Assembly: GCA_963693045.1 (NCBI GenBank)
Contig: OY843765.1
Location: 122,831-186,830 of the forward strand
DNA: 64,000 bases
Direction of reading: 5' to 3'
DNA from: an uncultured Acidocella sp.
Lineage (GTDB): Bacteria > Pseudomonadota > Alphaproteobacteria > Acetobacterales > Acetobacteraceae
The notes under the pieces are model-generated. The model was not told the DNA's origin and did no database searches. It saw only the letters and a program-made list of their open reading frames with translations. Shown one piece after another: positions 17,756-51,924 of this stretch. The position numbers were made by a program, and so were the translations under genes. Within the stretch, counting starts at the first letter, position 1. Every line of letters begins with the position of its first letter.

Positions 17756-17770
17756 AGTGTAACGAGTTAT

Positions 17771-32008: not shown

Positions 32009-32063
32009 ACCTGGCTCCTGGCTGAGCCGGCGGGCACGGGATCCGCCGGGACCTGATCGGGAC

Positions 32064-32810
32064 CTAATGTAGCGCGAAATCCTGTTCCGCCTCATAGTAG
32101 CGGCGGTAACGTTGATAATAAAGGTAGCCGGTTCCCGTGCTTTGGCCGTGTTGCACCACGAGGTCGAGGCAACGCACCGGGCCGCCGAGGAAAACCCGGT
32201 ACAGCACCGCCTTGCCGCCCCGATAGACGCGCACGGCGCCGGGCTCGGCAAAGGACGGCGCCGTCGCCTGGCCGTCATAGTTCCGATAGATCTGCAAAAT
32301 TGGTGCCGCGACCGGCGCCCTGGCATCGCGCGGCGCATAAACGTGCAAAAGTGCCACCAGGTTGCCATTGAACCCAGCGGTCCAGGGCGCGCCGTAGAAA
32401 CCGGGCAGGTAGTCGCGGATCGGCAGGCGCGGCGCCGTCGTGGCGGCCGGCGGCAGCTCGGTGAGGCAGGAGGAGAGCACCATCTCCCGCGCCCCGAACA
32501 GCCAGGCGAGAACCGCCTGCCCCGGCTCCGGCAACGCCGGCCCGAGATCGACGAGGCTGCCGGACCTTGCGACCGGCAGGCCGCCGAAGCCGTAGATGGG
32601 ACCAGGCGGGTCATGGGCGCTGGGGCGGATCCTGACCGCTTGCGCCCGGGCCAGGCTCTTCGCTTGTTCCACCATCGCGGTATCGGCCTTGTACCGCGCG
32701 GTCAGCATCCTGGCCCCGCCGTAGATCAGCAGCAGAACAAGCAGGAAACGCAGCAACGAACGATCGGCGGCGCGGCGGTCGGTCCGGTATCTTCTCGGAA
32801 AAAACCCCAT
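32064..32810 (-). CDS. single-pass membrane-anchored protein, unknown function
   Basis: Starts at ATG 32810 (MGFFPRRYRTDRR) or TTG 32834. One N-terminal TM (LLRFLLVLLLIYGGARML) followed by a ~200-aa domain. First gene of a 3-gene same-strand set. Confidence 0.5.
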   Translation of the reverse strand: MGFFPRRYRTDRRAADRSLLRFLLVLLLIYGGARMLTARYKADTAMVEQAKSLARAQAVRIRPSAHDPPGPIYGFGGLPVARSGSLVDLGPALPEPGQAVLAWLFGAREMVLSSCLTELPPAATTAPRLPIRDYLPGFYGAPWTAGFNGNLVALLHVYAPRDARAPVAAPILQIYRNYDGQATAPSFAEPGAVRVYRGGKAVLYRVFLGGPVRCLDLVVQHGQSTGTGYLYYQRYRRYYEAEQDFALH

Positions 32811-32975
32811 GGCGGACGGACCTGTTGCGGACAACCGTCCAGGCGGCGTGATGATCGACGCCCCCAGCCTGCCACAAAAGCGCGGCTTCCACCATTGCTG
32901 GGGCTCAACGACCGCCAGCCGGGGCGGGAAGGTCAGGCTGAAGCTGGAACGAAGCGTCTCGATCGGGCGCTATTG

Positions 32976-33051
32976 CTACCCTCATTTTGGCGGGCAATTC
33001 CATGGCTCAATCGATTGCCGCGCGATTCGACTTCAAGCCATATTGCCCTAG
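32976..33051 (+). repeat. REP/MITE-like repeat, copy B (in the divergent region upstream of vgrG)
   Basis: ctaccctcattttggcgggcaattccatggctcaatcgattgccgcgcgattcgacttcaagccatattgccctag aligns along its whole length with copies A and C. Confidence 0.8.
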
Positions 33052-33208: not shown

Positions 33209-35146
33209 ATGAGCGGAAGCGCAACCGATTTGCTGTCGATCAAGACGCCGCTGCCCGAAACCGCGTTCAAGGCCGTCGGTTTGAGCGCGCGTGAACAGCT
33301 CAGCCGGCCGTTCAGCTACCTCGTCGATCTCTCGTCCGGCACCGCGGCGCTGTCGCCGGACAGTCTGATCGACCAGAAGGTAACGGTGACTTTGGGCGAC
33401 CCCGAAACCCACGGCCGGTACTTCAACGGCGTGGTGCAGGCGGTGCAGCAAATGCCGACGGCCAATGCGGCGCTGTGGAGCTACCGGCTGACCGTGGTGC
33501 CAAAGCTGTGGTTCCTCGGCCAGACCCAAAGCTCGCGGTTTTTTCAGAACATGAACGTGCCGGACATCGTGACCGGGATATTGGACAAGTTCTCCGTCGC
33601 CTACAGCAAAAACCTGCAAGGCAGCTACGGCAAGCGCGACTACACCGTGCAGTTCAACGAAAGCTACCTGCACTTCGTCCAGCGTGTTCTCGAAGACGAG
33701 GGCATCTTCTATTTCTTCGAGCATACCGACAGCGCCCATACGATGGTGCTGGGCGACCGCAAATCGGCTTTTATGGAAATCCCCAACCCGAGCCTGACGG
33801 TGCGGGAGGGCGCCCAGGGCAGTTATGACCTGTCGAGTTGGCACCGCGAAGATAGTTCGGCGCTGGGCCAGGTGACGGTGGACGATTATGATCCCGCGAC
33901 CAATACGCTGAACCCGGCGGCGATCCGGGGCGAGGTGCCGACCGTGCTGACGCCGAGTGGTGCGCCGAACCGCACCCACTACACCTGGCCGGCGGTCCGC
34001 GGCACCACGGGCGACGCCAATACGCGGGCGCAATGGCGGATGGAGGCGGCCGAGGCGGCGGCGCAGCTTTATGCCGGCAGCGGCGGGCCGTTGGATTTTT
34101 TCGCGGGCGGCGTCATCACGGTCGCCAACGATCCGACCAAAGCTGGCGGCTCAGGCGATTACGTGCTGCGTTCGGTCACCTACCAGGCGTCCGACAGCGC
34201 CGACGGCACGATCGGCGGTAGCGGCAGCATGGCGACGATGAGCTGCACGGCGTTCCCGGCCGACAGGCAATGGCGGGAAGTACCGGCCTTCGCAGCGCCG
34301 GTGATGGCCGGGCTGTACACCGCCAAGGTGATCGGTCCGCCCGGCGAGGAGATTTATGTCGACGATCTGGGGCGGATCAAGATATGGTTTCCGTGGGACG
34401 TCGAAGGCGACATCAACGAGCAGGACACGCTCTGGGTCCGGGTGATGCAGCCCTGGGGCGGCGTCGGCTGGGGCACCCAGTTCGTGCCCCGGATCGGCAT
34501 GGAAGTGGTCGTGGCGTTCCTGGAAGGCGACGTGAACCGGCCGATGGTGATCGGCTCGATCTACAACAGCCAGCAAACCCCGCTGTTCAAGGCCGCCGAC
34601 AAGAACAAGAGCGGGATCAGGACCCGCTCCACGCTGCAAGGCGGCGACAGCAATTATCATGAACTGTCGTTCGACGACACCAAGGGCAGCGAGAAGATGC
34701 TGCTGCACGCCGAGAAGGATTACCAGCTCGAAGTCGAAAACGACCAGACCCTGCAGATCGACAACAACCGCAACGTCACGGTCACCAAGGATGAAACCGT
34801 AACGGTCAACGGCAAGCAGACGCATACGATCAAGGAGGACCGCACGCTGACGGTTTCCGAAGGCCACATGGCCACCACCGTCAGCCAGGGCAACCGGACC
34901 GCCGAGGTTTCGATGGGCAATGAGAGCCTCAAGGTCGATCTCGGCACCATCACTTACGAGGCGATGCAGTCGATCACGCTGAAGGTCGGCACCAGCTCGA
35001 TCGTCATCGACAATACCGGGATCACGATGAAAGGTCTGATGATCCAGGTGAGCGGCGACACGCTGACGGCGCTGAAAGGCGCGATGGTGCAGGTCAACGG
35101 CTCGGGCATGCTGACGCTGGCCGGCGGCATCACGATGATCAATTGA
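33209..35146 (+). CDS. vgrG: type VI secretion spike protein VgrG (TssI), no C-terminal effector extension
   Basis: 645 aa from ATG 33209 (purine-rich GGGGATGGA just upstream). gp27-like N-terminus, gp5-like OB fold and beta-helix repeats (VTVTKDETVTVNGKQTHTIKEDRTLTV). Ends with ...LAGGITMIN. Confidence 0.9.
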   Translation: MSGSATDLLSIKTPLPETAFKAVGLSAREQLSRPFSYLVDLSSGTAALSPDSLIDQKVTVTLGDPETHGRYFNGVVQAVQQMPTANAALWSYRLTVVPKLWFLGQTQSSRFFQNMNVPDIVTGILDKFSVAYSKNLQGSYGKRDYTVQFNESYLHFVQRVLEDEGIFYFFEHTDSAHTMVLGDRKSAFMEIPNPSLTVREGAQGSYDLSSWHREDSSALGQVTVDDYDPATNTLNPAAIRGEVPTVLTPSGAPNRTHYTWPAVRGTTGDANTRAQWRMEAAEAAAQLYAGSGGPLDFFAGGVITVANDPTKAGGSGDYVLRSVTYQASDSADGTIGGSGSMATMSCTAFPADRQWREVPAFAAPVMAGLYTAKVIGPPGEEIYVDDLGRIKIWFPWDVEGDINEQDTLWVRVMQPWGGVGWGTQFVPRIGMEVVVAFLEGDVNRPMVIGSIYNSQQTPLFKAADKNKSGIRTRSTLQGGDSNYHELSFDDTKGSEKMLLHAEKDYQLEVENDQTLQIDNNRNVTVTKDETVTVNGKQTHTIKEDRTLTVSEGHMATTVSQGNRTAEVSMGNESLKVDLGTITYEAMQSITLKVGTSSIVIDNTGITMKGLMIQVSGDTLTALKGAMVQVNGSGMLTLAGGITMIN

Positions 35147-35153
35147 GGCGGCC

Positions 35154-35747
35154 ATGAACAACGCCGCCCCGAACAAACTCTCCAGCGCCGAACTCGCCGA
35201 GGTGTTGCGGCGCTGCGACCTGCCGGCGCCGCCGGCGGCCGCGGTTGCCGGCATCGCCGACGTGCCAGGGGTGATCGCAGCTCTGGTCCGCGAAGGTTTT
35301 CAGGTCGAGGCGGCGCGGGTGTTCGCCCATGCGCTGCCGCGGCGCGAGGCGGTCTGGTGGGCCTGCATGTGTACCGCGCACACGGCACCGGCCGAGCTGG
35401 CCGAGGCCGACCGCAAGGCGCTGGAATACGCCGAACTCTGGGTCCGCCAGCAGACCGATGCGCTGCGCCGGGCGGCGATGGAGGAAGCCAAGAAAGCCGA
35501 GTTCCAGAGCCCGGAAGCCTGGGCCGGCGTCGCCGCGTTCTGGAGCGGCGATTCGATCGCGCCGCCGGAAAACTTGGCTGTGCCGCCGCCGCCGCATCTG
35601 GCCGGCGTCGCGGTCGCGGGCGCCGTCGCCCTAGCGGCGGTTCGCGGCAACCCGGTGCGTCAGCAACAGCGCCTCACGCTGTTCTTGCAAGCGGCGCAGG
35701 ACATCGCAGGCGGCGGCACCGGCCGCCTACAACCGGAGAGCCCGTGA
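35154..35747 (+). CDS. 197-aa conserved-looking hypothetical protein embedded in the T6SS operon
   Basis: Begins 7 nt after the vgrG stop, and its own stop overlaps the tagH start (GTGATG). Looks helical by eye, with a WWACMC motif. No family recognised by eye. Confidence 0.6.
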   Translation: MNNAAPNKLSSAELAEVLRRCDLPAPPAAAVAGIADVPGVIAALVREGFQVEAARVFAHALPRREAVWWACMCTAHTAPAELAEADRKALEYAELWVRQQTDALRRAAMEEAKKAEFQSPEAWAGVAAFWSGDSIAPPENLAVPPPPHLAGVAVAGAVALAAVRGNPVRQQQRLTLFLQAAQDIAGGGTGRLQPESP

Positions 35748-37162
35748 TGCTGGTTTTGAGTGTATTGCGCTGCCCGGATGCGGTGCCCCCGGAAACCAGG
35801 CGGGTTACCGGCGGCGAGTTCAAGATCGGTCGCGGCGCCGATAACGACTGGATCATGCCCGACCCGGACCGGCTGTTGTCGAAGCGGCATTGCGTGATCG
35901 CTTTTCGCAACGGCGGCTGGGCGCTGGCCGATACCAGCACCAACGGCACCTTTATCAACCGCGACGCCGAGCCGTTGGGCGCTGGCCGGATACGGGATCT
36001 GGCCAACGGCGACCGCATCCGTTTCGGCGCCTACGAGATCGAGGCACGGATCGAGGCGGAGGCCTTCGCGCCGGCGCCCCGCGGCGGCGGCTCGCCGTTC
36101 GACGATCCGTTCGGGGACGATGTGTTCGCGGCAAGGCCGGCGCCGCAGGAGACATTCACCTCGTCGGCCTTCGGCAACGATCCGCTGTTCGGCGGCCCGC
36201 CGCCGCAACAGGGTGTCGCGATGCCGAGCCGGTTCGATCCGCTGGCCGCGCCATCCGATGACGACTTCTTCGGGCCGGCGACCGTGCCGGACCATACCCC
36301 GTCGTTCGGCGACGCCTTCAGGCCGCCGCCGCTGGCGCCGAAGGTGGTTCCGGATGATGAGTGGGACCTTGATTTGCCGTTGAGCCCGCCGGCGGCCGCG
36401 CCGCCGCTTGCCGCACCGCCAGCACCCGCCTATGCGCCACCACCGCCGCCTGCCTTCGCGCCGCCGCCGCCGCCCTTGCCGATTGCGCCGGCGCCAGCCG
36501 CGGCGGTCTCGCCGTTCGCCGAGGAGGATGACGTCTCGCCGCCGGCCACGCCGCCGGAGCGCGCCGCCGCGGGGTCCGTGGCACTGCTGGATGCCTTTCT
36601 AGCGGGTGCGGGCATGACCGGCCGCACCCCGGAAAATCCCGAGGCGACGATGCGGGCCATGGGGGCGGCGATGCGCGCCACCGTCGCCGGTATCCGCCAG
36701 GCGCTGATCGCCCGCTCGTCGATCAAGGGCGAGTTCCGGATCGAGCAGACGATGATCCGCTCGCGCGGCAACAACCCGCTGAAATTTTCCGCCGACGACG
36801 ACGATGCGCTGAGCGCGCTGATCGGCGTCGGCCGGCGGATGGACGTGCAGCCGGACGCCGCGATCGCCGATGCGCTGCGCGACATGCGGCTGCACGAGCT
36901 GGCGACGATGGCGGCGATGCAGGACGCGGTGCGGGCCCTGCTCGCGCAGCTCGACCCGGCGCGGCTGCGGACCGAAGCCGAGGGCGGCGGTATGACGGTG
37001 CTGCCGGCGCAGAAGAAAGCCCGCGCCTTCGACGCCTATGAAAAGCTGCACGGCCAGGTCACCCGCGCCCTGGCCGACGATTTCGACAGCGTTTTCGGCA
37101 AGTCCTTTGCCCGCGCCTACGAGGTGGCGTTGCGGGCTATTTCGGCGAGGGAACCACAATGA
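35747..37162 (+). CDS. tagH: T6SS-associated FHA-domain protein TagH (Fha)
   Basis: 471 aa from ATG 35747. FHA domain (FKIGRGADNDWIMPDPDRLLSKRHCVIAFRNGGWALADTSTNGTFIN), Pro/Ala-rich middle, TagH-type C-terminal domain. Confidence 0.85.
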   Translation: MLVLSVLRCPDAVPPETRRVTGGEFKIGRGADNDWIMPDPDRLLSKRHCVIAFRNGGWALADTSTNGTFINRDAEPLGAGRIRDLANGDRIRFGAYEIEARIEAEAFAPAPRGGGSPFDDPFGDDVFAARPAPQETFTSSAFGNDPLFGGPPPQQGVAMPSRFDPLAAPSDDDFFGPATVPDHTPSFGDAFRPPPLAPKVVPDDEWDLDLPLSPPAAAPPLAAPPAPAYAPPPPPAFAPPPPPLPIAPAPAAAVSPFAEEDDVSPPATPPERAAAGSVALLDAFLAGAGMTGRTPENPEATMRAMGAAMRATVAGIRQALIARSSIKGEFRIEQTMIRSRGNNPLKFSADDDDALSALIGVGRRMDVQPDAAIADALRDMRLHELATMAAMQDAVRALLAQLDPARLRTEAEGGGMTVLPAQKKARAFDAYEKLHGQVTRALADDFDSVFGKSFARAYEVALRAISAREPQ

Positions 37163-37611
37163 AAAGACTATGCGCCGTGCTTGCGTTCCTGGCTCTGGCG
37201 GGCTGCGCCAAGCCGCCGCCGCCGCCCCCGCCGCCGGTGCTGACGCTCAACATCATCGGCAGCACCGGGCAGAACCCTGACCCCGGCGGCCAGGGCAACA
37301 CGGTGGCGGTGCAGCTTTACCAGCTCACGGCCACCGGAAAATTCCAGTCGACCGATTTCTATTCGCTGACCGGCCAGGAGGCCGCGACCCTGGGGACGGA
37401 CGAGTCTGGCTCTTCCGAGCAGTTTCTGGTCGCACCCGCGGCGAAGCTGACCGAGACCCGGCCGCTGAAGCCGAACGTGGTGGCGGTCGGCCTCGCGGTT
37501 CTGTTCCGCAACATCAACCAGTCGACCTGGAAGCTGCTGGCGCCGGTGGCGCCGAACGGCCCCAGCGTCGTGACCTTGCGGATCAGCGGATTAACGGCGA
37601 CAGTGAAATGA
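37159..37611 (+). CDS. tssJ: T6SS outer-membrane lipoprotein TssJ (SciN)
   Basis: 150 aa. Lipobox LALAGC (Cys16), then 8 consecutive Pro, then a TssJ-like region (NTVAVQLYQLTATGKF). The ATG overlaps the tagH stop (ATGA). Confidence 0.8.
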   Translation: MKRLCAVLAFLALAGCAKPPPPPPPPVLTLNIIGSTGQNPDPGGQGNTVAVQLYQLTATGKFQSTDFYSLTGQEAATLGTDESGSSEQFLVAPAAKLTETRPLKPNVVAVGLAVLFRNINQSTWKLLAPVAPNGPSVVTLRISGLTATVK

Positions 37612-37668
37612 ATCGCCGCGCGGCATGACCAGCCGCAAGGCCGAACAGGGGGTTAAACAAACCGCGCG

Positions 37669-39000
37669 ATGAGCTGGACCAACCGCGTCGTCTGGGCAGA
37701 GGGGATGTTTCTGCGCTCGCAGCATTTCCAGCAGCAGGACCGCTGGCTGGAGGCGTTCGTGCGCGGCCGTGCCGCGGCGCTGCGGCCGCACAGCTGGGGC
37801 CTGACCCAGATGACGCTGGACAAGGACCTGCTCGGCACCGGCCGCTTCGCGGTAGCGGCGGCGTCCGGCGTATTCGAGGACGGCACGCCGTTTTCGCTGC
37901 CTGGCGAGACCGATCATCCGCCGCCCTTCGAGGTGCCGGACAACACCCGCGGCGTCCTGGTGCATCTGGCCCTGCCGATCCGCCAGAGTGGTGCCGTGGA
38001 AATTGCCGCCGCCGACGGCAGCGCCGAAGGCCGTTACAAGGCGCAGAGCTTCGAGGCCTACGACACCCATTCCGCCTCGCCGCAGGCCGCCGAGATTTTG
38101 GTCGGCCGGCTGAAGCTGCGCTACCTGCTGGAGAGCGAGGAGCGCGCCGGTTACCTGTGCATACCGGTGGCGCGGATCATGGAAGTCTCCGCCGACAAGC
38201 GGGTCACCCTGGATGAGAACTGGATGCCGCCGGCGCTGGTTTGCAGCGCGGTGCCGCCGCTGGCCGGGCTGATCACCGAATTCGCCGGCATGATCAACCA
38301 GCGGGGCGAGGCGCTGGCGGGGCGGGTCAACGCGCCAGGGGCGCGCGGCGTCGCCGAGGTTTCGGACTTCATGCTGCTGCAGGCGATCAACCGCTGGCAG
38401 GCCTTGCTGCGGCATTGGGCCGACGCGGCAAATATCCATCCGGAGACGCTGTACGCGGCCTATGTCGAGATGGCCGCCGAGTTCGCCACCTTCACCGATG
38501 TCAACCGCCGGCCCGGCACCTATCCCGGCTATCGGCACGAGGATTTGCAGCGCAGCTTCGCGCCGGTGGTGGCCGACCTGCGGCGCTCGCTTTCCGCCGT
38601 GATCGAAACCAACGCGATGGCGATCGCCCTGCAGGAACGCCGGCACGGCCTGCATGTCGGCGCCATCCTGGACCGCAACGTGTTGCGCGCCGCGAGCTTC
38701 GTGTTGAGCGTGCAGGCCGACGTGCCGACCGAGACGATGCGCCGGCTGTTCCCGGCGCAGGTCAAGATCGGCGCGGTGGAACAGATCCGCGAGCTGGTGA
38801 ACGTGGCGCTGCCGGGCATCGCGGTGCGGCCGCTGCCGGTCGCACCCCGGCAGATCCCGTTTTACGCCGGCGCCAGCTATTTCGAACTGGACCGCAACTC
38901 GCCGCACTGGCAGCAGATGCAAACCTCGGGCGGCTTCGCGATCCACGTCTCGGGCGAGTTTCCGAACCTGCGCATGGAACTGTGGGCGATCAAAGGCTAG
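37669..39000 (+). CDS. tssK: T6SS baseplate protein TssK (ImpJ)
   Basis: 443 aa. The N-terminus MSWTNRVVWAEGMFLRSQHFQQQDRW is characteristic of TssK. Confidence 0.9.
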   Translation: MSWTNRVVWAEGMFLRSQHFQQQDRWLEAFVRGRAAALRPHSWGLTQMTLDKDLLGTGRFAVAAASGVFEDGTPFSLPGETDHPPPFEVPDNTRGVLVHLALPIRQSGAVEIAAADGSAEGRYKAQSFEAYDTHSASPQAAEILVGRLKLRYLLESEERAGYLCIPVARIMEVSADKRVTLDENWMPPALVCSAVPPLAGLITEFAGMINQRGEALAGRVNAPGARGVAEVSDFMLLQAINRWQALLRHWADAANIHPETLYAAYVEMAAEFATFTDVNRRPGTYPGYRHEDLQRSFAPVVADLRRSLSAVIETNAMAIALQERRHGLHVGAILDRNVLRAASFVLSVQADVPTETMRRLFPAQVKIGAVEQIRELVNVALPGIAVRPLPVAPRQIPFYAGASYFELDRNSPHWQQMQTSGGFAIHVSGEFPNLRMELWAIKG

Positions 39001-39102
39001 AGCAATATGGCTTGAAGTCGGATCGCGAAGCGATCGACTGAGCCATGGAATTGCTCGCAAAATAAGGCTAGAGCGTGGTGAGTGCCAACTCATCACGCTC
39101 TA
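38997..39102 (-). repeat. REP/MITE-like repeat, copy C, plus adjoining 14-bp-stem hairpin (tssK-tssL spacer)
   Basis: The core 38997-39071 is bounded by CTAG at both ends, and the first CTAG contains the tssK TAG stop. 39069-39082 (tagagcgtggtgag) pairs with 39089-39102 (ctcatcacgctcta) with one G-T wobble. Confidence 0.8.
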
Positions 39103-39125
39103 CCAAGAAAAAAGGATTTGGCGCG

Positions 39126-40505
39126 ATGACCGATAATCCGTTTTCCGAGCCCGAGGATTCTGACCGCACCGTGATCCGGCCGATGCCGGGCGGCAAAAAA
39201 CCCGCCGCGCCGGCTGCCAGCCCCGCCTTCGGCGCGGCGGCTTCGCCGTTCGAGGCGGCGCCGAAATACGAGGCCGGGCCGGCGCCCCGGCAGGCCGACG
39301 CCCCGGAAACGATTGCGATGGGCGGCTCGCCTCTGGTCGCGGCCGCGGCGCCGCTGCTGCAATTACTGGCGCGGCTGCGCAACACGCTGAGCCAGCCGGA
39401 TAGCGGCGATCTGCGGGAGCGGGCGACCGCCGAGATCAGGCGGTTCGAGGAAACCGCACGGAGCCGGAACATTTCGATGGAGCAACTCCGCCCGGCGCAT
39501 TACGCGCTGTGCGCCAGCCTGGACGACGTGGTGCTGGCCACCCCCTGGGGCAGCCAGGGCGCCTGGGCGCAGCGCTCGTTGGTCTCGACCTTCCATCAGG
39601 AGGTCCGCTCCGGCGAGCGGTTCTTCGACGTGTTGCGGCAACTGCAACAAAATCCCGGCGGCTTCCTGCCGGTGCTGGAGCTGATGTATTTCTGCCTGTC
39701 GCTCGGCTACATGGGCCGCTACCGGCTGTCGCCGCGCGGCCCGGCCGAGATCGATAAAATTCGCGAGGATACCTACACCGTGATCCGCCGCCAGCTTCCG
39801 GCCGGGGAGGCGGGGCTGTCGCCGCATTGGCAGGGGATCGCGGCGCCCTACCGGGCCCGGCGGTTCGCCATCCCGCTCTGGCTGGCGGCGGTGGTGGCGG
39901 TGGGGCTGCTCGCTCTGGTCTATGGCCTGTTCCTGTTCTCGCTTGGCCGGCAGTCGAGTGCCGCGTTCGAGGCGCTGGTGACGGCGCCGCCGGCCGCGAT
40001 GCCGCAGATCGTGCGGGCGCAGCCGGTGGTGGCACCGCAGGAACCGGCGGCTTCGGGGCCGACCATCCTGCAACGGCTGAGCGGCTTTCTCTCGCCGGAG
40101 ATCGCCGCCGGCAAGGTCAGCGTGCTCGGCACCGTCAACGCGCCGATCGTGCGGATCAACAACACCGGATTGTTCGGCAGCGGCGCCGCGGTGGTGGAGG
40201 ATGACGACATAGCGCTGTTGCGCAAGATCGGCGCGGCGCTGGGGCGGGAGACCGGCAGCATCACCGTCACCGGCTACTCCGACAACCAGCCGATCCACAC
40301 GTTGCAGTTCCCGTCCAACTTCGAACTGTCGACGGCGCGGGCGCAGGCGGCGGCGCAGATCATGGACCAGACCATCGGCGATCAGAGCCGGATCACCGCC
40401 AAGGGCCTGGGCGACGCCGATCCGGTCGCCTCGAACGACACCGCCGCCGGCCGGGCGCAGAACCGGCGTATCGAAATCGTACTGAACCACGCCTTGCAGG
40501 ACTGA
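39126..40505 (+). CDS. tssL: T6SS membrane protein TssL (DotU/ImpK) with C-terminal OmpA/MotB peptidoglycan-binding domain
   Basis: 459 aa from ATG 39126 (MTDNPFSEPEDSDRTVIRP; AAGGA 10 nt upstream). One TM (LWLAAVVAVGLLALVYGLFLF). OmpA-like end (TVTGYSDNQP...AQNRRIEIVL). Confidence 0.9.
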   Translation: MTDNPFSEPEDSDRTVIRPMPGGKKPAAPAASPAFGAAASPFEAAPKYEAGPAPRQADAPETIAMGGSPLVAAAAPLLQLLARLRNTLSQPDSGDLRERATAEIRRFEETARSRNISMEQLRPAHYALCASLDDVVLATPWGSQGAWAQRSLVSTFHQEVRSGERFFDVLRQLQQNPGGFLPVLELMYFCLSLGYMGRYRLSPRGPAEIDKIREDTYTVIRRQLPAGEAGLSPHWQGIAAPYRARRFAIPLWLAAVVAVGLLALVYGLFLFSLGRQSSAAFEALVTAPPAAMPQIVRAQPVVAPQEPAASGPTILQRLSGFLSPEIAAGKVSVLGTVNAPIVRINNTGLFGSGAAVVEDDDIALLRKIGAALGRETGSITVTGYSDNQPIHTLQFPSNFELSTARAQAAAQIMDQTIGDQSRITAKGLGDADPVASNDTAAGRAQNRRIEIVLNHALQD

Positions 40506-40509
40506 GCGG

Positions 40510-43500
40510 TTGAAAAAAATTCTGGGCTTCTTCGTCTCGCGCTGGTTTCTGAGTCTGATCGGCGTCGCCGTGCTGGCGGCGCTGCTCTGGTTCTTCGGGC
40601 CGTTCATCGCGGCACTCGCGGGCATCGTCGTCCGGCTGGCGATCATCCTGTTGCTGTTGCTGGTCTGGCTGGGCGTGAACCTGTGGCTGGACCGCCGCCG
40701 CCGGCAGCGGGACGCGGCTCTGGCGGCCGGCGTCGCGGCGGCGACACCCGACGCCAATGCCGGCGCCGAGGAAGTCGCGGCGTTGTCGGACCGGCTGAAA
40801 ACCTCGCTAGCGCTGCTGCGCAAGGCGCGCGGCACCAAGGGCTACATCTACGAGCAGCCCTGGTACGCCATCATCGGCCCGCCCGGCGCCGGCAAGACCA
40901 CCGCACTCCTGAACGCCGGGCTGAAATTCCCGCTGGCGGCGGAAATGGGCCAGGGCGCGGTGGCCGGCGTCGGCGGCACCCGGCTCTGCGACTGGTGGTT
41001 CACCGAGGACGCGGTGCTGATCGACACCGCCGGGCGCTACACCACGCAGGATTCCGACGCCCGGGTCGACCGCGCCGGGTGGGAAGGTTTCCTCGACCTC
41101 TTGAAGCGGACCCGGGCGCGGCAGGCGCTGAACGGCGTGATCGTGGCGATCTCGCTGGCCGACATCGCCGCCGCGCCGCGCGAAGAACGCCTCGCCCACG
41201 CCCGCTCGATCCGCAAGCGGGTCAAGGAAATCACCGAGCGGCTGGGGCTGCGGCTGCCGGTCTACGCGCTGCTGACCAAGGCGGACCTGCTGGCCGGCTT
41301 CACCGAATTCTTCGACGACCTGGATGCCGAGCGGCGCGGCCAGGTCTGGGGCACCACCTTCGCGGCAGACGCGGACCGCCAGGGCGGGCCGGTGGCCCGT
41401 TTCGCGCCCGAATTCGCGCTCCTGGTCAAGCAGTTGGAAGACCGGATGCTGGACCGGCTGGCGGCCGAACGAAGCCCGGAGCGGCGGGCGATGATCGTCG
41501 GCTTCCCGACCCAGGTGGCAAGCCTGGAAGCGCCGTTGACCGAGTTCCTGACCGAAGCCTTCGGCGGCTCGACGCTCGATCCGGCGCCATTTTTGCGCGG
41601 CGTCTACATGACCTCCGGCACCCAGGAAGGCACGCCGATCGACCGGCTGACAGGGGCGCTGTCGCGCTCCTTCGGAATCGACCAGCGCCGCGCCCCCAGC
41701 CTGCGCGCCGCCTCCGGCCGCAGCTATTTTCTGACCCGGCTCCTGAACGACGTGATCTTCAACGAGGCGATGCTGGCGAGCGACAACCCGCAGGCGGTGC
41801 GCCGGCGGCGGGCGCTGCAAACCGCCGGCTTCGCTGCGGTGGCGCTGGTGTTTCTGGCGCTGCTGGCCGGGCTGGTGCTGAGCCGGAGCCACAACGCGGC
41901 GGCGATCGCGGCCAGCAACCAGGCCCGCGGCGGCTATGCCGGCACCGCCCAGGCGCTGCCGCTGAACCCGGTCAGCGACGCCAATCTGCTGAGCATTCTG
42001 CCGATGTTGGACCAGGCGCGGGACCTGCCGTTCGGCGCCGGCGACCAGTCCGCCCATGGCGGGATGGGCTTCGGGCTGAACCAGGCGCCGAAGCTCGCCG
42101 CCGGGGCCGGCACGCTTTATCTGAACGCGCTCGACAACGCGATGCTGCCGCGGCTGATCCTGCAACTCGAAGCAGAGATGCGCGGCGGCTTCGACCGGCC
42201 GGACTTCCTCTACCAGGCGACCCGGGTTTACCTGATGCTGGGCGGCCAGGGGCCGCTCGACAAGCCGCTCGTCGAGGCCTGGATGAGCCTCGACTGGCAG
42301 CGGCTGTATCCGGGCCTGGCCGCGCAGCCGGTGCGCGACGACCTGATGGCGCATCTGCAAGCGCTGCTGGCCGCACCCCTGCCGGCCGTGCCGCTGGATG
42401 GCGGGCTGGTCGAGGCGGCGCGGGCGACGTTCAGCCGGGTCTCGGTGGCGGACCGGGTCTATTCGCGGATCCGTGGCTCGGCAGAGGCGGCGGAGGTGCC
42501 GCCCTGGGTGCCGGGGGACGCGATGGGCGCCGCCGGCGCCGGGCTGTTCGCCCGCGCCTCCGGCAAGCCGCTGACCGAGGGCATCCCCGGCTTCTTCACG
42601 GTCAAGGGCTTCCACCTGGTGCTGCTGCCGGCGCTGGCGCACTCGGCGCAGGATGTGGCGGGCGAAAGCTGGGTGCTCGGCACCGAAAGCCAGGTCGATC
42701 CGACCAGCCCGGAAATGGTCAACCTCGAAGTCAACGTCATCAAGCTCTACGAGGCGGATTACGAAGCCGCGTGGAACGCCATGCTGGGCGACATCAACCT
42801 GGCCCCTTCCAGCAACATCGGCCAGTCGGTGCAGAACCTTTACGTGCTCTCCAGCCCGCAATCGCCGATGGCGAAGTTGCTCGGCAGCGTGGCGGAGCAG
42901 TTGCAGCTTTCCAAGGCGCCAGCCTTGCCGCCCGGCGCCGCGCCCGCCGCCGCGAAGCTGCCGGGCGCCTCGGCGGTGAGCACGGAGGCGGCGGCGCTGC
43001 AGGGGCTGATCGGCCCGGCGGCGGTCGGGTCGGCGCCGGCGCCGCCTGGCGCGGAGGTCGATGCCTACTACCAGCCGCTGATCAACTATGTCGGCAGCGG
43101 GCCGGGGGCGCCGATGTCGCTGACGCTGAACCTGATGAGCAGCCTGCAGCAGCAACTGGCGGCACTGGCGGCCGCGGCGCCGGGCGCCGGCGCCCCGGCG
43201 GCGCCCGCGGCCGGCGGCGACCCGGCCTCGTTGCTGCAAGGCGAGGCCGCCACCGATCCGCAGCCGGTGGCGCGCTGGCTGCTGGCGCTGGTCGGCAACG
43301 CCGATTCGCTGCGTGGCGGCAGCGCCGCGCAGGCGGCGGCGGCGGCGTTCAACGGCGCCGGCGGGCCGGCGCAGCTCTGCCAGCAGGCCGTGGTCGGCCG
43401 CTACCCGTTCACCGAAAGCTCTTCGACCGACATCCCGCTCGGCGACTTCGCGCGTCTGTTCGCGCCGAACGGCCTGATCGACACCTTCTTCTCGACCCAG

Positions 43501-44040
43501 GTGCGGCAGTTCGTCGACATGTCCGGCAGCACCTGGCGCATCCAGGCGGTGAACGGGGTGACACCGCCGATCAGCCAGGGCGCGCTGGCGGAGTTCCAGC
43601 GCGCGGAGAACATCCGGCAGTTGTTCTTCGCCACCGGCGCGACGCCGGCGGTGCAGTTCAGCATCACGCCGACCACGCTCGACCCCGGCGCCGCGCAAGT
43701 CTCGCTGCAACTGGGCGCGCTTGCCGTAAGTTACGCCCATGGCCCGCCGGTGCCGACGCAGATTTCCTGGCCGGGTGCCGATGGGATGCAGACGGCGCGG
43801 TTGATCATCACGCCGGCGGCCGGCGGCAGCCCGGCCGAGATCGACGCCAGCGGCCCCTGGGCGCTGTTCCGGCTGTTCGCGCAAGGCAGCCTGATGCAGG
43901 CCGGCTCGTCCGACCAGTACACGCTCACCTTCTCGCAAGGCGGCCATACCGCCGGCTTCAATATCGAGGCTGGGTCGGTGCTGAACCCGTTCACGCCGGG
44001 CGTGCTGGAGAATTTTCGTTGCCCGAGTTTGCAGGGATGA
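40510..44040 (+). CDS. tssM: T6SS membrane ATPase-like protein TssM (IcmF)
   Basis: 1176 aa. TTG start lies 4 nt after the tssL stop. N-terminal TM helices, Walker A GPPGAGKTT and a large IcmF-type periplasmic region. Confidence 0.95.
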   Translation: MKKILGFFVSRWFLSLIGVAVLAALLWFFGPFIAALAGIVVRLAIILLLLLVWLGVNLWLDRRRRQRDAALAAGVAAATPDANAGAEEVAALSDRLKTSLALLRKARGTKGYIYEQPWYAIIGPPGAGKTTALLNAGLKFPLAAEMGQGAVAGVGGTRLCDWWFTEDAVLIDTAGRYTTQDSDARVDRAGWEGFLDLLKRTRARQALNGVIVAISLADIAAAPREERLAHARSIRKRVKEITERLGLRLPVYALLTKADLLAGFTEFFDDLDAERRGQVWGTTFAADADRQGGPVARFAPEFALLVKQLEDRMLDRLAAERSPERRAMIVGFPTQVASLEAPLTEFLTEAFGGSTLDPAPFLRGVYMTSGTQEGTPIDRLTGALSRSFGIDQRRAPSLRAASGRSYFLTRLLNDVIFNEAMLASDNPQAVRRRRALQTAGFAAVALVFLALLAGLVLSRSHNAAAIAASNQARGGYAGTAQALPLNPVSDANLLSILPMLDQARDLPFGAGDQSAHGGMGFGLNQAPKLAAGAGTLYLNALDNAMLPRLILQLEAEMRGGFDRPDFLYQATRVYLMLGGQGPLDKPLVEAWMSLDWQRLYPGLAAQPVRDDLMAHLQALLAAPLPAVPLDGGLVEAARATFSRVSVADRVYSRIRGSAEAAEVPPWVPGDAMGAAGAGLFARASGKPLTEGIPGFFTVKGFHLVLLPALAHSAQDVAGESWVLGTESQVDPTSPEMVNLEVNVIKLYEADYEAAWNAMLGDINLAPSSNIGQSVQNLYVLSSPQSPMAKLLGSVAEQLQLSKAPALPPGAAPAAAKLPGASAVSTEAAALQGLIGPAAVGSAPAPPGAEVDAYYQPLINYVGSGPGAPMSLTLNLMSSLQQQLAALAAAAPGAGAPAAPAAGGDPASLLQGEAATDPQPVARWLLALVGNADSLRGGSAAQAAAAAFNGAGGPAQLCQQAVVGRYPFTESSSTDIPLGDFARLFAPNGLIDTFFSTQVRQFVDMSGSTWRIQAVNGVTPPISQGALAEFQRAENIRQLFFATGATPAVQFSITPTTLDPGAAQVSLQLGALAVSYAHGPPVPTQISWPGADGMQTARLIITPAAGGSPAEIDASGPWALFRLFAQGSLMQAGSSDQYTLTFSQGGHTAGFNIEAGSVLNPFTPGVLENFRCPSLQG

Positions 44041-44050
44041 ACCGCTCGCG

Positions 44051-45349
44051 ATGAACTTTCAGCCGGCAATGACCGGGCTGTTCGGCAAGCTGCCGGCGCG
44101 GGGCGACTTCGTGCGTGCCGGGCTGCCGGAGGATTTCGTTACCGCCTGGGATGGCTGGTGCCGGGAGATGCTGGCGGCGTCCCGTGACGCACTGGGCGAC
44201 GGCTGGCCACCGGCCTGGCTGGAGGCGCCGATCTGGCGGTTTCTGCTGCCGGCGGGAGCCTGCGGCGCGCGGGCGGTTCTGGGGGTCTGGCTGCCGAGCG
44301 TGGACAAGGTCGGCCGGCAGTACCCGATCGTGCTTTGCGCCCTGGCCAACGCGGCCGAGGATCTGCGCGACGGCGGCGCTTGGGCGGAACGCGCCGAGGC
44401 GGCGGGGCTGGACGGCGTGGTGCGGGACGCGCCGCACGAGGCGCTGGCGGCGCGTCTGGCGCTGCCGGTCGATACCGCGCCGCTGCCCCCGCCCGGCTGG
44501 TGGACCGAGGGCAGCCCGAACGTGGCACCACGGCGGCTGGAAATCGCCGGGCTGATCCCGCCGGACCAGAGCGTCTGGGATGCTGCGCGATCTTGCCCCC
44601 ACGGAGCGCGGCTGATGGGGGTGAAGCACTGGGCAATGACCAATGCCGGCGCGGTGCGCAAGCATAACGAGGATAACATGCTGAGCCGGCCCGACCTCGG
44701 ACTGTGGGCGGTAGCGGATGGCGCCGGCGGCCACCAGTCCGGCGAGCTGGCTTCCGGCATGATCGTCGCCGAGTTGGACCGGCTGGCGCCGCATCTGCCT
44801 GGTGCCGAATTGCTGGCGCAGGTGCGGCTGACGCTGGGGCGGGTGCACGAGACGTTGCGCGCGGCGGCAGCGGCGCGCGGGCCGCAGGTGGTGATCGCCT
44901 CCACCTTCGCGGCGCTGATCCTGCGGGACCGGCATTTCGCTTGTCTCTGGGCCGGTGACTCGCGGGTCTATCTGCTGCGCGCCGGGGTGCTCTCGCAGGT
45001 CAGCCGGGACCACAGCCTGGTGCAGGAACTGGTCGATAGCGGCGATCTGGCGGCGGCGGATGCCGAGCACCACCCGCACGCCAACGTCATCACCCGCGCG
45101 GTCGGCGGCGGCGGGGAAAGCCTGGAGCTGGACAAGGTAATCGGCCAGGTCGAGCCGGGCGACCGCTTTCTGTTGTGCAGCGACGGCTTGAGCAAGACCT
45201 TGTCGGAGACCGAAATCGCCAGCCTGCTCGCAGCACCAGACGGCGTGCCGCCGCCGGAGCTGCTGATTGCCGCGGCACTGGCGCATAACGTGAACGACAA
45301 CGTCACGGCGGTGGTGGTGGAGCTCGAGCGCGAGAGACGTATGGCTTGA
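44051..45349 (+). CDS. tagF: TagF (DUF2094) - PP2C Ser/Thr phosphatase (PppA) fusion protein
   Basis: 432 aa in a single frame. Residues ~1-185 are TagF-like (GLFGKLPARGDFV, WLPSVDKVGRQYP); residues ~190-430 are PP2C (RKHNEDN, WAVADGAGGH, LLCSDGL, DNVTAVVV). Confidence 0.85.
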   Translation: MNFQPAMTGLFGKLPARGDFVRAGLPEDFVTAWDGWCREMLAASRDALGDGWPPAWLEAPIWRFLLPAGACGARAVLGVWLPSVDKVGRQYPIVLCALANAAEDLRDGGAWAERAEAAGLDGVVRDAPHEALAARLALPVDTAPLPPPGWWTEGSPNVAPRRLEIAGLIPPDQSVWDAARSCPHGARLMGVKHWAMTNAGAVRKHNEDNMLSRPDLGLWAVADGAGGHQSGELASGMIVAELDRLAPHLPGAELLAQVRLTLGRVHETLRAAAAARGPQVVIASTFAALILRDRHFACLWAGDSRVYLLRAGVLSQVSRDHSLVQELVDSGDLAAADAEHHPHANVITRAVGGGGESLELDKVIGQVEPGDRFLLCSDGLSKTLSETEIASLLAAPDGVPPPELLIAAALAHNVNDNVTAVVVELERERRMA

Positions 45350-45372
45350 AGCCGGATCGCGCGACGATCGAT
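45337..45372 (-). repeat. REP/MITE-like repeat, truncated copy D
   Basis: gacgtatggcttgaagccggatcgcgcgacgatcgatc matches one arm of copy C only. The tagF-pppA stop codon (atggcTTGAag) lies inside it. Confidence 0.65.
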
Positions 45373-45457: not shown

Positions 45458-46117
45458 TCAGCACCAGCCGGTCGCGCTTTGGCGCAGCACCGGGGTTGCG
45501 AAGGAGCTGACGATGCGATGGCCGGCCAGAGGCTCTTGCCAGCGCGCCGATTGCAACATGGACGCCGCCAGAACGACCGGCGCGATGCCGGCCCCGTTCA
45601 GCAGCGCCAGGCCGGCGGCCATCGAGGCGCCGCTGGAGATCACGTCGTCCAGCAGCGCCACCCGGCGGCCGGCCAGCAGCGGCAACATGCGCGGGTCGAT
45701 GTAGAGGCGTTTGCGTTGTTCCGGGGTGGTGATGGAAGAAAGCGGCACCGAGAGTTCCTCGGCGTACCAGAATTTCCGCGAGGTGCCGAGCGGGACATAG
45801 CGGGCGTGGCCGAGCTTTTGCGCCACCGCGCCGGCCAGCGTCAGGCCGAGGGTCGGCAGGCCGACAATGATCTCGGGCGCGTCAGCGTGGAGCTTTGCGG
45901 CAAGGTCGGTAGCCAGCGCGTCCAGCACAGCGAAGCTGGCCTGGTTGATGATCAACGAAACAAGCGCCTGCTGGCCGCCGGGCAGCGGGCGGATCGGCAG
46001 CCGTAACTGCCGCCCGTCGCCGAGCGCCACCACGAAGCCGCCATCGGCCGGTCCGGCGGGCAGGTGGCCGGGCGGGTGCAGCTCCTGCCAGAACTCGTGC
46101 GGTTGTAGTGGCGTCAA
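45458..46117 (-). CDS. phosphoribosyltransferase-family protein
   Basis: 219 aa with a PRPP-binding loop (VALLDDVISSGASM). The TTG start overlaps the xerC stop (TTGA). Confidence 0.75.
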   Translation of the reverse strand: MTPLQPHEFWQELHPPGHLPAGPADGGFVVALGDGRQLRLPIRPLPGGQQALVSLIINQASFAVLDALATDLAAKLHADAPEIIVGLPTLGLTLAGAVAQKLGHARYVPLGTSRKFWYAEELSVPLSSITTPEQRKRLYIDPRMLPLLAGRRVALLDDVISSGASMAAGLALLNGAGIAPVVLAASMLQSARWQEPLAGHRIVSSFATPVLRQSATGWC

Positions 46118-47016
46118 GCGCGGGGGTGGCTGCGGGCCCAGACTTCCATCAGCTGGGCGGTGTCGACATCGGTGTAACGCTGCGTGGTGGAGAGGCTGGC
46201 GTGGCCGAGCAGCTCCTGGATCGAGCGTAGATCGGCGCCGCCGGCCAGCAGATGGGTCGCGAAAGAGTGGCGCAGGGCGTGCGGCGTGGCGTGTTCCGGC
46301 AGGCCGTGCAGCCGGCGGAAGTCACGCAGCGACTTCTGCACCACCGCGGCATTCAGCCGCTTGCCGCGCGCCCCCAGGAACAGCGGCGCCTCCGGCACCG
46401 GGTTCGGGTGCAGCTTCAGCCAGACGGCCAGCGCCTCGCGCAACGCCGGCAGCAGCGGCACGATGCGCTGCTTGTTGCCCTTGCCGGTGACGCGCAGCGC
46501 GTCGTCGGCGGCCGGCAGGTCGCGCAGGTTCAGGGACAGCGCCTCGTCGATCCGCAGGCCGGCGCCGTACAGCAAACACATCAGCGCCTCGTCGCGAGCT
46601 TGCGCTGCCTCGGTGTCGCGCAATGCGCCGATGTCGCGGGTCACGGCGATCGCGTCCGCCGGCGCCAGCGCCTTCGGCAGCGGCCGTTTGGCGCGGGGGC
46701 GGGAGATCAGCGCCAGCGCCGTGGTCTGCACGCCGTGGCGCTGGTGCAGGAAGCGGAAGAAGGTTTTCACCGCCGAGAGCTTTTTGGCTCTGGTGGCGTT
46801 GCCGGCACCTGCCTTGGCTTCGTGCGCCAGCCAGGCCCGGACATCCACAGGCTTCAGGCCGGCGAGCGCCGCCGCGTTCGGCTCTTCCGCCAGGTGGTTG
46901 GCGAGGAAGCCGAGGAAGCCGGCGACATCCCGGCCGTAGGTCTCGACCGTCTTGGCCGCCGCCCGGCGCTCGGCCGTCAGCCAGGCCAGGAAGGCGAGGC
47001 GCAGCGCTTCAGCCAA
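46114..47016 (-). CDS. xerC: tyrosine site-specific recombinase XerC
   Basis: 300 aa with an N-terminal SAM-like core-binding domain. Catalytic region has [12 protein letters not shown]...[13 protein letters not shown]. Confidence 0.8.
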
Positions 47017-47108
47017 TGCTTTGCCCGGTCTTCGCCCGGTCGGCGGTATCGACGGAAAATTTCACGGGTGGTTTCCGGTCACGTGATGTCTGTGCGAAAC
47101 CATACAGC

Positions 47109-50033: not shown

Positions 50034-50161
50034 GGGTTGAGCTTGGCGACCTCATCGATGGGACGATCTTGCCGGAGAAGACGATGAACGGCCGGCCAAG
50101 GCAATGGGGTGGTTCTAGCGGGGCAACCTTTAAGAATTGGTGGAGGGGGGTGGGTTGTTGG

Positions 50162-50407
50162 TTATTCGTCCGGCGTTGATCGGGCGTTTGCGTCGTCCCG
50201 GTCGAACTTGAAGTCGGCGGGCAAGCGGCCCCGGAAGGTGCGGAGGCGCGCCAGGAGGTCGTTGCGGCTGGGCTTGCGGGATATGCCGAAGGTGGTGGCG
50301 TCGGCGACGTGGATTTCGATCTCGTCGCCTTCTTTCAACGCAAGTGCTTCGACCGCGGCGGCGGGGAGACGGATTGCGAGGCTGTTGCCCCATTTGGCGA
50401 CTTTCAT
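50162..50407 (-). CDS. AbrB/MazE/SpoVT-family antitoxin-like DNA-binding protein (no partner toxin gene)
   Basis: 81 aa. MKVAKWGNSLAIRLPAAAVEALALKEGDEIEI is the swapped-hairpin antitoxin signature. AGGAG lies 7 nt upstream of the ATG. Confidence 0.85.
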   Translation of the reverse strand: MKVAKWGNSLAIRLPAAAVEALALKEGDEIEIHVADATTFGISRKPSRNDLLARLRTFRGRLPADFKFDRDDANARSTPDE

Positions 50408-51922: not shown

Positions 51923-51924
51923 TC

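Follow-up and report, generated by a model that had tools for sequence, protein, structure and literature searches.

A vgrG-to-pppA operon of an apparently split type VI secretion system in an uncultured Acidocella sp.

[quoted passage not shown] An earlier note on this DNA had left three readings open, namely a physically split T6SS, a relic, and a module serving another function. The first is favored by orthologous ClpV and TssC proteins encoded on the same chromosome, by purifying selection on the arm, and by the presence of its junctions in a sister lineage; the other two are disfavored.

Gene identities were obtained from Pfam and NCBIfam profile searches of the arm ORFs, all on the plus strand, and the gene coordinates are identical to the public gene calls. 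The arm starts with vgrG (tssI; 33209–35146; 645 aa), which matches TIGR03361 with 468 bits and has Phage_GPD, Phage_base_V, and Gp5_trimer_C domains; no C-terminal effector domain is recognized by the Pfam or NCBIfam profiles. Directly 3′ of vgrG is the gene for a 197-aa protein (35154–35747). The earlier note had listed it, correctly, and called it unknown, but it belongs to the DUF6931 family (PF22011, 1.4e-45). The next gene, tagH (fha; 35744–37162), encodes an FHA-domain T6SS scaffold or regulator (TIGR03354, 289 bits) composed of FHA (PF00498, 2.1e-15) and T6SS_FHA_C domains. Its start codon, GTG at 35744 or ATG at 35747, overlaps the stop of the DUF6931 gene in the sequence gcccGTGATGctg.

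The outer-membrane lipoprotein TssJ (37159–37611; 150 aa; TIGR03352, 92.6 bits) carries the lipobox LALAGC (LAGC) and is followed by the baseplate subunit TssK (37669–39000; 443 aa; PF05936, 541 bits; TIGR03353, 490 bits). TssL (39126–40505; 459 aa; DotU and OmpA domains; TIGR03349/TIGR03350) is of the long form and ends C-terminally in a peptidoglycan-binding domain of the OmpA type, and the inner-membrane core subunit TssM (40510–44040; 1176 aa; TIGR03348, 1126 bits) has the Walker A motif GPPGAGKT at residue 123. The last ORF is a tagF-pppA fusion (44051–45349; 432 aa), with TagF_N at residues 9–137 and PP2C at residues 196–424. Its PP2C half exceeds the Pfam PP2C_2 and PP2C cut-offs and matches the Stp1-type model NF033484 (4.2e-49) with 167 bits, under the curated cut-off of 230. 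These profile matches bear out the gene content originally proposed for the block, and the intervals between successive genes (7 nt, GTGATG, ATGA, 57, 125, 4, and 10 nt) were all re-measured with the same result. No promoter or terminator was identified for the arm.

The TIGR models for TssJ, TssL, and TssM all score above their curated cut-offs, establishing the membrane complex of a canonical T6SS-i; the TssK connector (490 bits) and the VgrG spike (468 bits) of such a system are likewise present. Of the components of threonine-phosphorylation control (PpkA/PppA/Fha), an FHA protein and a PP2C phosphatase are present. The arm would supply the TssJLM membrane complex, the TssK baseplate connector, and the spike protein VgrG together with its partner DUF6931, in addition to post-translational control through TagH(FHA), TagF, and PppA.

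The remainder of the window contains no other T6SS core gene in a Pfam scan of every major ORF. In agreement with this, tblastn searches of the window with a relative's TssA, TssB, TssC1, TssC2, TssE, TssF, TssG, TagJ, ClpV, Hcp, and cargo proteins gave no match at E ≤ 1e-3, so the reported lack of tssA, tssB, tssC, tssE, tssF, tssG, hcp, and clpV in the window holds. The core genes are therefore not gathered at this locus; non-T6SS genes border it for 33 kb on the upstream side and for 18.6 kb on the downstream side. On the vgrG side there are three minus-strand ORFs without family match (U1, U2, and U3), and on the other side a convergent PRTase-XerC pair, continuing as PRTase-xerC-priA; the ORF scan agrees with the earlier description of the flanks as a divergent three-gene operon and a convergent xerC-PRTase pair. 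Pfam found no Ser/Thr kinase domain in the window, and none was found in the complete clusters of relatives. The noted absence of ppkA and PAAR is real; since the complete clusters of relatives also lack both, it represents a lineage trait and not a result of the split.

The same arm lies inside one contiguous cluster in the close relatives L001/L009, L010, and L011, whose TssK is 90–94% identical to that of the window. In the relatives, pppA is directly followed by a convergent cargo-hcp-clpV unit, tail-to-tail with the arm, and this unit is divergent from a tssA-tssB-tssC-tssC-tagJ-tssE-tssF-tssG unit. The more distant L007 likewise has the arm, then a convergent X-hcp-clpV unit, and then tssA to tssG. 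Two consecutive tssC genes and tagJ are found in the contiguous clusters of L009, L007, and L008; for the window genome, one TssC was looked at. The genes for TssA, TssB, TssE, TssF, TssG, and Hcp adjoin clpV and tssC in all relatives, and the gene 3′ of hcp, outside the arm, is likely a cargo gene. tssJ is present in L001, L010, and L011 and absent from the Acetobacter MAG L004. L001, L004, L007, L010, L011, and L094 all have the DUF6931 gene at this position, and its product always accompanies vgrG in this T6SS type; relatives were sought in the PDB and none was found.

DNA homology between the window and the relatives' clusters starts at 33199 and ends at 45321–45322. The earlier note had expected the second arm on the divergent side of vgrG, which is not where it belongs: in the relatives the partner units are convergent and 3′ of pppA, and this places the breakpoint at 45.32–45.37 kb. 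The junction (45319–45372, plus strand) contains a degenerate half-copy of a hairpin repeat, which provides the final codons of pppA together with its stop.

Two of the partner proteins are encoded elsewhere in the genome. ClpV (P0233; 880 aa) is full length, has both Walker A motifs, and is 87–89% identical to the relatives' copies, and TssC (P0325; 496 aa) is also full length, with VipB domains and 93% identity to TssC on the contig of L011. Each is found on one 3,538,773-bp contig, the same as for every window protein looked up; this shared contig in the protein database, which comes without coordinates, was used to place both in the genome of the window. The window TssK is identical (100%) to P0001 from this contig; the exact VgrG and TssJ proteins are also present in the public collection, VgrG on the same contig. 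Neither P0233 nor P0325 is encoded in the window, as seen in tblastn searches with a relative's ClpV and TssC. The genome that carries the arm thus also encodes the TssC and ClpV expected of a canonical T6SS-i. By sequence comparison, both proteins are orthologous to the relatives' ClpV and TssC copies, and the gene order in relatives suggests that tssA, tssB, tssE, tssF, tssG, and hcp would be found at this other locus.

ClpV and TssC could in principle belong to a second complete T6SS with its own tssJKLM, with the arm being a leftover duplicate, and a distantly related second system could lie beyond the best 120 matches listed for each protein search. This is very unlikely: the orthologues of P0233 and P0325 are those of the arm's own cluster type, both halves have diverged to a similar degree from one set of relatives (TssK 94/94/90% versus TssC 89/93/87% identity to three relatives), and the arm is under purifying selection. 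A duplicate TssK would be at least 74% identical to that of the arm, and P0001 is the only such protein from the 3,538,773-bp contig among the matches listed (best 120). The matched divergence of the two halves and the single TssK among these matches point to one system, not two.

A sister lineage, represented by three ENA metagenome contigs that were assembled independently and come from two samples (L092, L093, and L094; 88–90% DNA identity), has both junctions in common with the window. L092 and L093 contain the junction of pppA with PRTase-xerC-priA, including the sequence at 45.3 kb in a diverged form, and L094 contains the junction of U3-U2-U1 with vgrG. It follows that the split was inherited and did not arise by misassembly. 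Each end of the arm has a repeat copy at it or close by, and the earlier note had raised the possibility of an assembly error at these short repeats, by which the arm would have been joined to PRTase-xerC. That possibility is refuted by the three contigs that cross the same two junctions, and its likelihood is negligible: the repeats measure only 33–107 nt, and the upstream copy is absent in the sister lineage, where the junction is unchanged.

The two lineages are separated by a dS of about 0.3. Since the split, dN/dS has been 0.07 for TssL, 0.06 for TssM, 0.06 for PP2C, and 0.26 for TagF, while the flanking PRTase, xerC, priA, and GGDEF genes show 0.16–0.23, so that TssL, TssM, and PP2C fall below neighboring housekeeping genes. 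Compared with their orthologues, the eight arm ORFs are all full length; their dN/dS is 0.04–0.32 overall, 0.04–0.06 for TssK, and 0.19–0.32 for DUF6931, and no premature stop or truncation occurs across about 12 kb of the arm. These values indicate strong purifying selection on the arm since the split.

The parting of the operon from its partner units, a frameshift in tagF, and a mobile hairpin inside the operon with another just upstream would all suit an arm, or a whole system, that is non-functional and decaying, with too short a time elapsed for its ORFs to look damaged. We consider this improbable. The split is older than the divergence of the sister lineage (dS about 0.3), a span over which TssL, TssM, and PP2C kept dN/dS of 0.06–0.07 and about 12 kb acquired no stop codons or truncations, and full-length ClpV and TssC are encoded at another place on the chromosome. 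Nothing beyond the arm's physical separation from the genes for sheath and tube speaks for co-option of the membrane complex for a function other than a T6SS. This reading is highly unlikely, as each gene has a close orthologue (up to 94% identical) within the relatives' complete T6SS clusters and the partner genes are kept in the same genome. The split T6SS is probably functional, and what we describe is an ordinary T6SS, neither a relic nor a new machine.

The arm was ancestrally one of three operons in one contiguous cluster. We propose that a rearrangement, which broke the DNA no more than about 50 nt from the stop of pppA, parted the arm from the two other units in the common ancestor of the window genome and the sister lineage and left it between the three-gene operon and PRTase-xerC-priA. 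Elsewhere on the 3.54-Mb chromosome, the genes for the sheath and ClpV are kept, presumably with those for the tube, wedge, and TssA. Products of the two loci would then come together in trans to build the machine; the loci would be co-expressed and support secretion, physical linkage not being needed.

The arm has features of two known systems. The P. aeruginosa H1-T6SS has an arm with the order fha1-tssJ1-tssK1-tssL1-tssM1-tagF-pppA-ppkA. The fha-to-pppA order of the window, tssJ included, matches this generally known order, as had been proposed, and the logic of an FHA protein, a PP2C phosphatase, and a TagF repressor is also H1-like. In H1, however, ppkA, tagQRST, and a divergent adjacent second arm are present, whereas here there is no linked kinase, vgrG-DUF6931 precedes fha, and the partner units are convergent in relatives and unlinked in the window genome. 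The genes tagF, pppA, and ppkA are individual in H1 (PMC5813230), and tagF and pppA are also separate in the relatives.

The T6SS of A. tumefaciens C58, encoded by the imp operon (atu4343-atu4330) and an hcp operon, belongs to 'group 5' of Bernal et al. (PMC5813230; Lin et al. 2014, PMC3953482). Without tssJ, the arm matches the distal end of the imp operon, as the earlier note had recognized, sharing the order fha-tssK-tssL-tssM-tagF/pppA. Further similarities are the long-form TssL with a peptidoglycan-binding domain, the Walker-A TssM, and, within the complete cluster of the relatives, tssC present twice in succession, tagJ, and a clpV-hcp unit that stands apart. A. tumefaciens TssL is phosphorylated at Thr14 in the region STDNPSSWQDLPTVVEI (PMC3953482); the TssL N-terminus of the window, MTDNPFSEPEDSDRTVIRP, resembles it, with Thr-Val-(Val/Ile) at the Thr14 position. 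Group 5 systems have been described as lacking tssJ and as having tagF fused to pppA, followed by ppkA (PMC5813230). In contrast, tssJ is present here, ppkA does not follow pppA here or in relatives, and the single TagF-PppA polypeptide, although Agrobacterium-like, exists only through a private frameshift. In addition, vgrG and DUF6931 head the arm operon, whereas in Agrobacterium vgrG follows hcp, and tssA-G form a separate unit, at another locus in the window genome.

A working T6SS with essential structural genes over several loci has a precedent in V. cholerae, in which the essential Hcp is encoded only in auxiliary clusters, outside the main cluster, and VgrGs at three loci (PMC6691524). 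There, the membrane complex, baseplate, and sheath genes are together and only hcp/vgrG/effector modules are dispersed, whereas the cut described here separates membrane complex, TssK, and spike from sheath and ClpV, and presumably from tube and wedge.

The practical consequence concerns annotation. T6SS core genes usually share a single locus, as single-locus detection models assume; such detectors would label each of the two loci in this genome "incomplete", although the data favor one working system whose genes lie at two sites. The split arm leaves knowledge of how a T6SS works unchanged; it provides a clean, datable case of a system cut between membrane complex/TssK/spike and contractile machinery and selected afterwards, which fits the view of T6SS sub-assemblies as genetically modular. 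It is possible, though rather doubtful, that this cut, with tube and wedge presumably on the sheath/ClpV side, is a stable, selected arrangement of one Acidocella clade, combined with a de novo TagF-PppA fusion by a single-base frameshift. If so, the two halves would be free for separate regulation, and the frameshift would have recreated, independently, a fused repressor like that of Agrobacterium and would serve as a natural experiment for asking why TagF and PppA fuse.

The earlier note had listed a TagF-PP2C fusion, and it is indeed a single ORF in the window, but it is not ancestral. TagF (187/188 aa) and PppA (238–244 aa) are encoded by two separate genes in the sister lineage and in the relatives. 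The DNA alignment reveals a one-base insertion, a private +1 frameshift at about 44555–44575. The original pppA start codon is kept at 44615, and the ancestral TagF tail, ...GMLRDLAPTERG*, is readable in another frame. The frameshift alters the last ~15 residues of TagF and joins it to PppA, which could perturb regulation; it could also be a sequencing error. Together with a mobile 107-nt hairpin, it offers a small handle on regulation.

The repeats that the earlier note had placed at 32.98, 39.0, and 45.34 kb are real (chance expectation, 0 matches) and are copies of this mobile, roughly 107-nt hairpin element (MITE/REP-like), which has no match in Rfam. A partial copy on the minus strand (32986–33051) lies in the U1-vgrG intergenic region. 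In L094, the equivalent of window positions 32902–33044 is only 65 nt and the partial copy is absent from this site, indicating a recent insertion. The full-length copy of about 107 nt (38996–39102, plus strand; fold of −32 kcal/mol, z = −4.1) is in the tssK-tssL spacer, which measures 125 nt here versus 21–26 nt in L001, L010, and L011. From this position it could affect the expression of tssL, tssM, tagF, and pppA. It is 91% identical to a copy at a different site in L094, and a fourth copy is present in the window at 17.8 kb.

The T6SS arm consists of eight co-directional genes between 33209 and 45349, which were called with a codon-position G+C screen together with Pfam and NCBIfam scans. 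They encode VgrG (33209-35146), a 197-aa DUF6931 protein (35154-35747), the FHA protein TagH (from 35744 or 35747 to 37162), the TssJ lipoprotein (37159-37611), TssK (37669-39000), a long-form TssL with an OmpA-type domain (39126-40505), TssM (40510-44040), and a 432-aa ORF in which TagF_N is followed by PP2C (44051-45349). The matches to core components all far exceed the curated cut-offs, and public gene calls retrieved by exact look-up have the same coordinates. The domain scans bear out the block described in the earlier note, and the spacers and overlaps that it quoted are exact on the sequence. Its further claim, that the window holds no other T6SS core gene, also stands after ORF scans and tblastn, in which TssA, B, C1, C2, E, F, G, TagJ, ClpV, Hcp, and the cargo protein of one relative gave no match. 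The remaining major ORFs of the window (~66% G+C) are housekeeping or unrelated genes, including those for pyruvate carboxylase, prpCD, the PDH complex, ATP synthase, priA, xerC, PRTase, a KaiC-like protein, and a histidine kinase.

The nearest named relatives by TssK are Acidocella facilis and an Acidocella sp. (94%). An equivalent arm is present in L001/L009, L010, and L011, relatives whose TssK is 90%, 94%, and 94% identical to that of the window, respectively. Directly after pppA, these relatives carry a convergent unit of a variable gene, hcp, and clpV, and past clpV a divergent unit with the order tssA-tssB-tssC-tssC-tagJ-tssE-tssF-tssG. The second arm had been expected on the divergent side of vgrG; in the relatives it follows pppA, in convergent orientation. 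The identical three-unit layout of L007 and L008, two more distant MAGs, together with that of the near relatives, indicates that contiguity is the ancestral state. Neither a Ser/Thr kinase nor a PAAR gene is found in the relatives' complete clusters that we examined, so the lack of both in the window is a lineage trait: their absence had been correctly noted, but it does not result from the split. A scan of species genomes with the Hcp of one relative, too divergent a query for the exact-word patterns used, retrieved only two loci, both from distant MAGs and none from Acidocella, and is informative for architecture only.

Between hcp and pppA lies one gene, which differs among species (L001:18084-18641, L010:17853-18620, L011:17789-18475) and encodes a 185-aa unknown protein, a 255-aa unknown protein, or a YopT-like Peptidase_C58 protein. 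This position is likely an Hcp-associated variable cargo slot; no obvious immunity gene adjoins it in the contiguous clusters. In L007 (10474-15541), no TssM was placed between tagF and tssL, its site in all other relatives, by a tblastn screen that kept matches with a query coverage of 40% or more; the gap may reflect a real loss, a relocation, or an effect of this filter. The Acetobacter sp. MAGs L004-L006, with a 78%-identical TssK, have the arm vgrG-DUF6931-tagH-tssK-tssL-tssM-tagF-pppA, without tssJ. On its flanks are a two-partner secretion pair and a histidine kinase/response regulator, and no second arm occurs within 4 kb of it; it may be an independent instance of an equivalent operon standing alone.

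The window TssK has an identical entry in the protein database, found on one contig of 3,538,773 bp. Exact look-up assigned the window's VgrG, DUF6931, TssJ, TssL, TssM, TagF-PP2C, PRTase, and GGDEF protein to one contig of this length, along with two proteins encoded outside the window. The first, obtained with a relative's ClpV as query, is a ClpV of 880 aa (P0233) that forms a singleton cluster and is 87-89% identical to those of the relatives; the second, obtained with a relative's TssC, is a TssC of 496 aa (P0325), 93% identical to the TssC on the L011 contig. The divergence from common relatives matches between the two halves (94/94/90% for TssK and 89/93/87% for TssC), and only one TssK at least 74% identical comes from a contig of this length among the matches listed. 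The simplest reading of these sequence matches is a single T6SS encoded in two places. Because the neighborhood of clpV and tssC is conserved, the second locus would also be expected to contain tssA, tssB, tssE, tssF, tssG, and hcp. The earlier note had left three readings open, a physically split T6SS, a relic, or a membrane-complex module with another function, and the presence of ClpV and TssC on one chromosome with the arm favors the first.

A cluster look-up of near-identical proteins from ENA metagenome assemblies led to three contigs of a sister lineage (L092, L093, and L094), which are 88-90% identical to the window at the DNA level and collinear with it over both junctions. Downstream, tssM-tagF-pppA is followed across the junction by PRTase-xerC-priA-GGDEF and, further on, atpC; upstream, a stretch running from a TPP enzyme gene to MFS-U3-U2-U1 leads to vgrG. 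A misassembly could have created these junctions by artificially separating the block from its other arm, but both joins are confirmed by the three contigs, which were independently assembled from two samples, and this explanation is therefore removed. Comparison of the two lineages indicates that the split is real, inherited, and tolerated.

Since the window and the sister lineage have the split in common, their divergence (dS ~0.3) arose after it. Over this interval dN/dS is 0.07 for TssL, 0.06 for TssM, 0.06 for PP2C, and 0.26 for TagF, compared with 0.16-0.23 for the flanking PRTase, xerC, priA, and GGDEF genes; with L010 and L011, which are more distant, as the reference, values for all eight arm genes are 0.04-0.32. 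A decaying relic, the second of the readings left open, is strongly argued against by these low ratios, both since the split and relative to L010 and L011.

DNA homology between the window and the contiguous clusters extends from 33199 to 45321/45322, ending ~6 nt ahead of the relatives' pppA stop codons, and the final nine codons and stop of the window pppA fall within a dispersed repeat, present here as a degenerate half-copy. This repeat is a lineage-specific, MITE/REP-like hairpin element of ~107 nt with short terminal inverted repeats (GCTAGAGC...GCTCTA). Four copies are found in the 64-kb window (17753-17859, 32986-33051, 38996-39102, and 45319-45372), three of them touching the T6SS arm, and none in 884 kb of the other relatives' loci; neither Rfam nor a plasmid search of PLSDB gave a match. 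The copy between tssK and tssL accounts for their spacer of 125 nt, compared with 21-26 nt. A rearrangement mediated by this repeat was considered as the cause of the split. However, the sister lineage shares the junction but has no copy upstream of vgrG; it carries one between the MFS gene and U3 (L094:6469-6575) instead, a site empty in the window. The element has therefore been recently mobile and has moved since the split, and the half-copy at 45.34 kb is old, making the repeat an unlikely cause.

Downstream of the arm lie PRTase, xerC, and priA. A metagenome scan with PRTase returned mostly paralogous contexts, L081 being the only syntenic one. In this relative (72-74% identical; L081:6463-12146, corresponding to window 45458-49091), priA-xerC-PRTase directly adjoins atpC, so in the window and the sister lineage the orientation of this block with respect to the atp operon is reversed. 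More than one rearrangement has thus taken place around the arm, and this inversion did not explain the split.

The TagF-PP2C fusion reported earlier exists as a single ORF, but it is the product of a one-base insertion. All relatives, the sister lineage among them, keep tagF (187/188 aa) and pppA (238-244 aa) apart as two genes, the stop codon of the first abutting the start codon of the second. The window has one extra base ~50 nt ahead of the ancestral tagF stop, which places TagF in the pppA frame (44555-44620); the ancestral TagF tail, ending in GMLRDLAPTERG and a stop, can still be read in the alternative frame, and pppA keeps its ATG. The sequence is compatible either with a private mutation recreating the Agrobacterium-type TagF-PppA fusion (PMC3953482, PMC5995506, PMC5813230) or with a sequencing or assembly indel error.

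The structural steps would follow established T6SS biology, as described, for example, in PMC4604203, and would require the second locus to provide its products in trans. TssJ, TssL, and TssM would form the envelope-spanning complex, anchored to peptidoglycan via the OmpA-type domain of TssL. TssK would link this complex to the TssEFG-VgrG baseplate, where Hcp and TssBC would polymerize, and ClpV would recycle the contracted sheath. A precedent for supply in trans is Vibrio cholerae, in which the Hcp gene lies away from the main cluster (PMC6691524). TagH, by analogy with A. tumefaciens (PMC3953482, PMC5995506), would recognize a phosphothreonine close to the N-terminus of TssL (...SDRT15VIRP in the window and ...DLPT14VVEI in Agrobacterium), PppA would undo this phosphorylation, and TagF would act through Fha to repress assembly; such phosphothreonine control would involve a putative kinase.

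The closest type is the Agrobacterium/Rhizobium "group 5", with which the arm has in common the order fha-K-L-M-tagF/pppA, and the contiguous clusters of the relatives a duplicated tssC and tagJ. In contrast to group 5, tssJ is present, no ppkA is linked, and vgrG-DUF6931 heads the operon, and we therefore do not file it as canonical group 5. As a T6SS-i it is ordinary; its genomic arrangement is unusual, though not unprecedented. Our literature search found no paper on an Acidocella T6SS and nothing specific on "split" T6SS clusters.

For DUF6931, a PDB profile search gave no match, a single-sequence AlphaFold model was all helical with a pLDDT of 50 and unusable for a fold search, and the literature holds one passing mention ("DUF6931/SsdA-like immunity"). 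A promoter/terminator consensus scan and an alignment of vgrG upstream regions were uninformative or empty. Divergent from vgrG is a three-gene operon (29703-32834, minus strand) of U3 (29703-30521), U2 (30542-32047), and U1 (32064-32834), encoding a signal-peptide protein, a multi-pass membrane protein of ~500 aa, and a membrane-anchored protein. None has a Pfam, NCBIfam, or PADLOC match; U2 belongs to an unannotated family whose representative clusters number 312 at E<=1e-3 and 216 at <=1e-10. These three genes also lie beside vgrG in L094 and are missing from the flanks of the contiguous clusters, and are therefore probably unrelated to the T6SS.

Between the GGDEF gene and atpC, window 50050-51925 is a low-G+C island (54% vs ~66%). 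It contains a MazE/AbrB-type antitoxin-like ORF (50162-50407, minus strand), with no obvious toxin partner, and an orphan ORF of 313 aa (50814-51755). The sister lineage carries a PIN-MazE pair and IS fragments at this site, and the differing content identifies it as a variable insertion hot spot.
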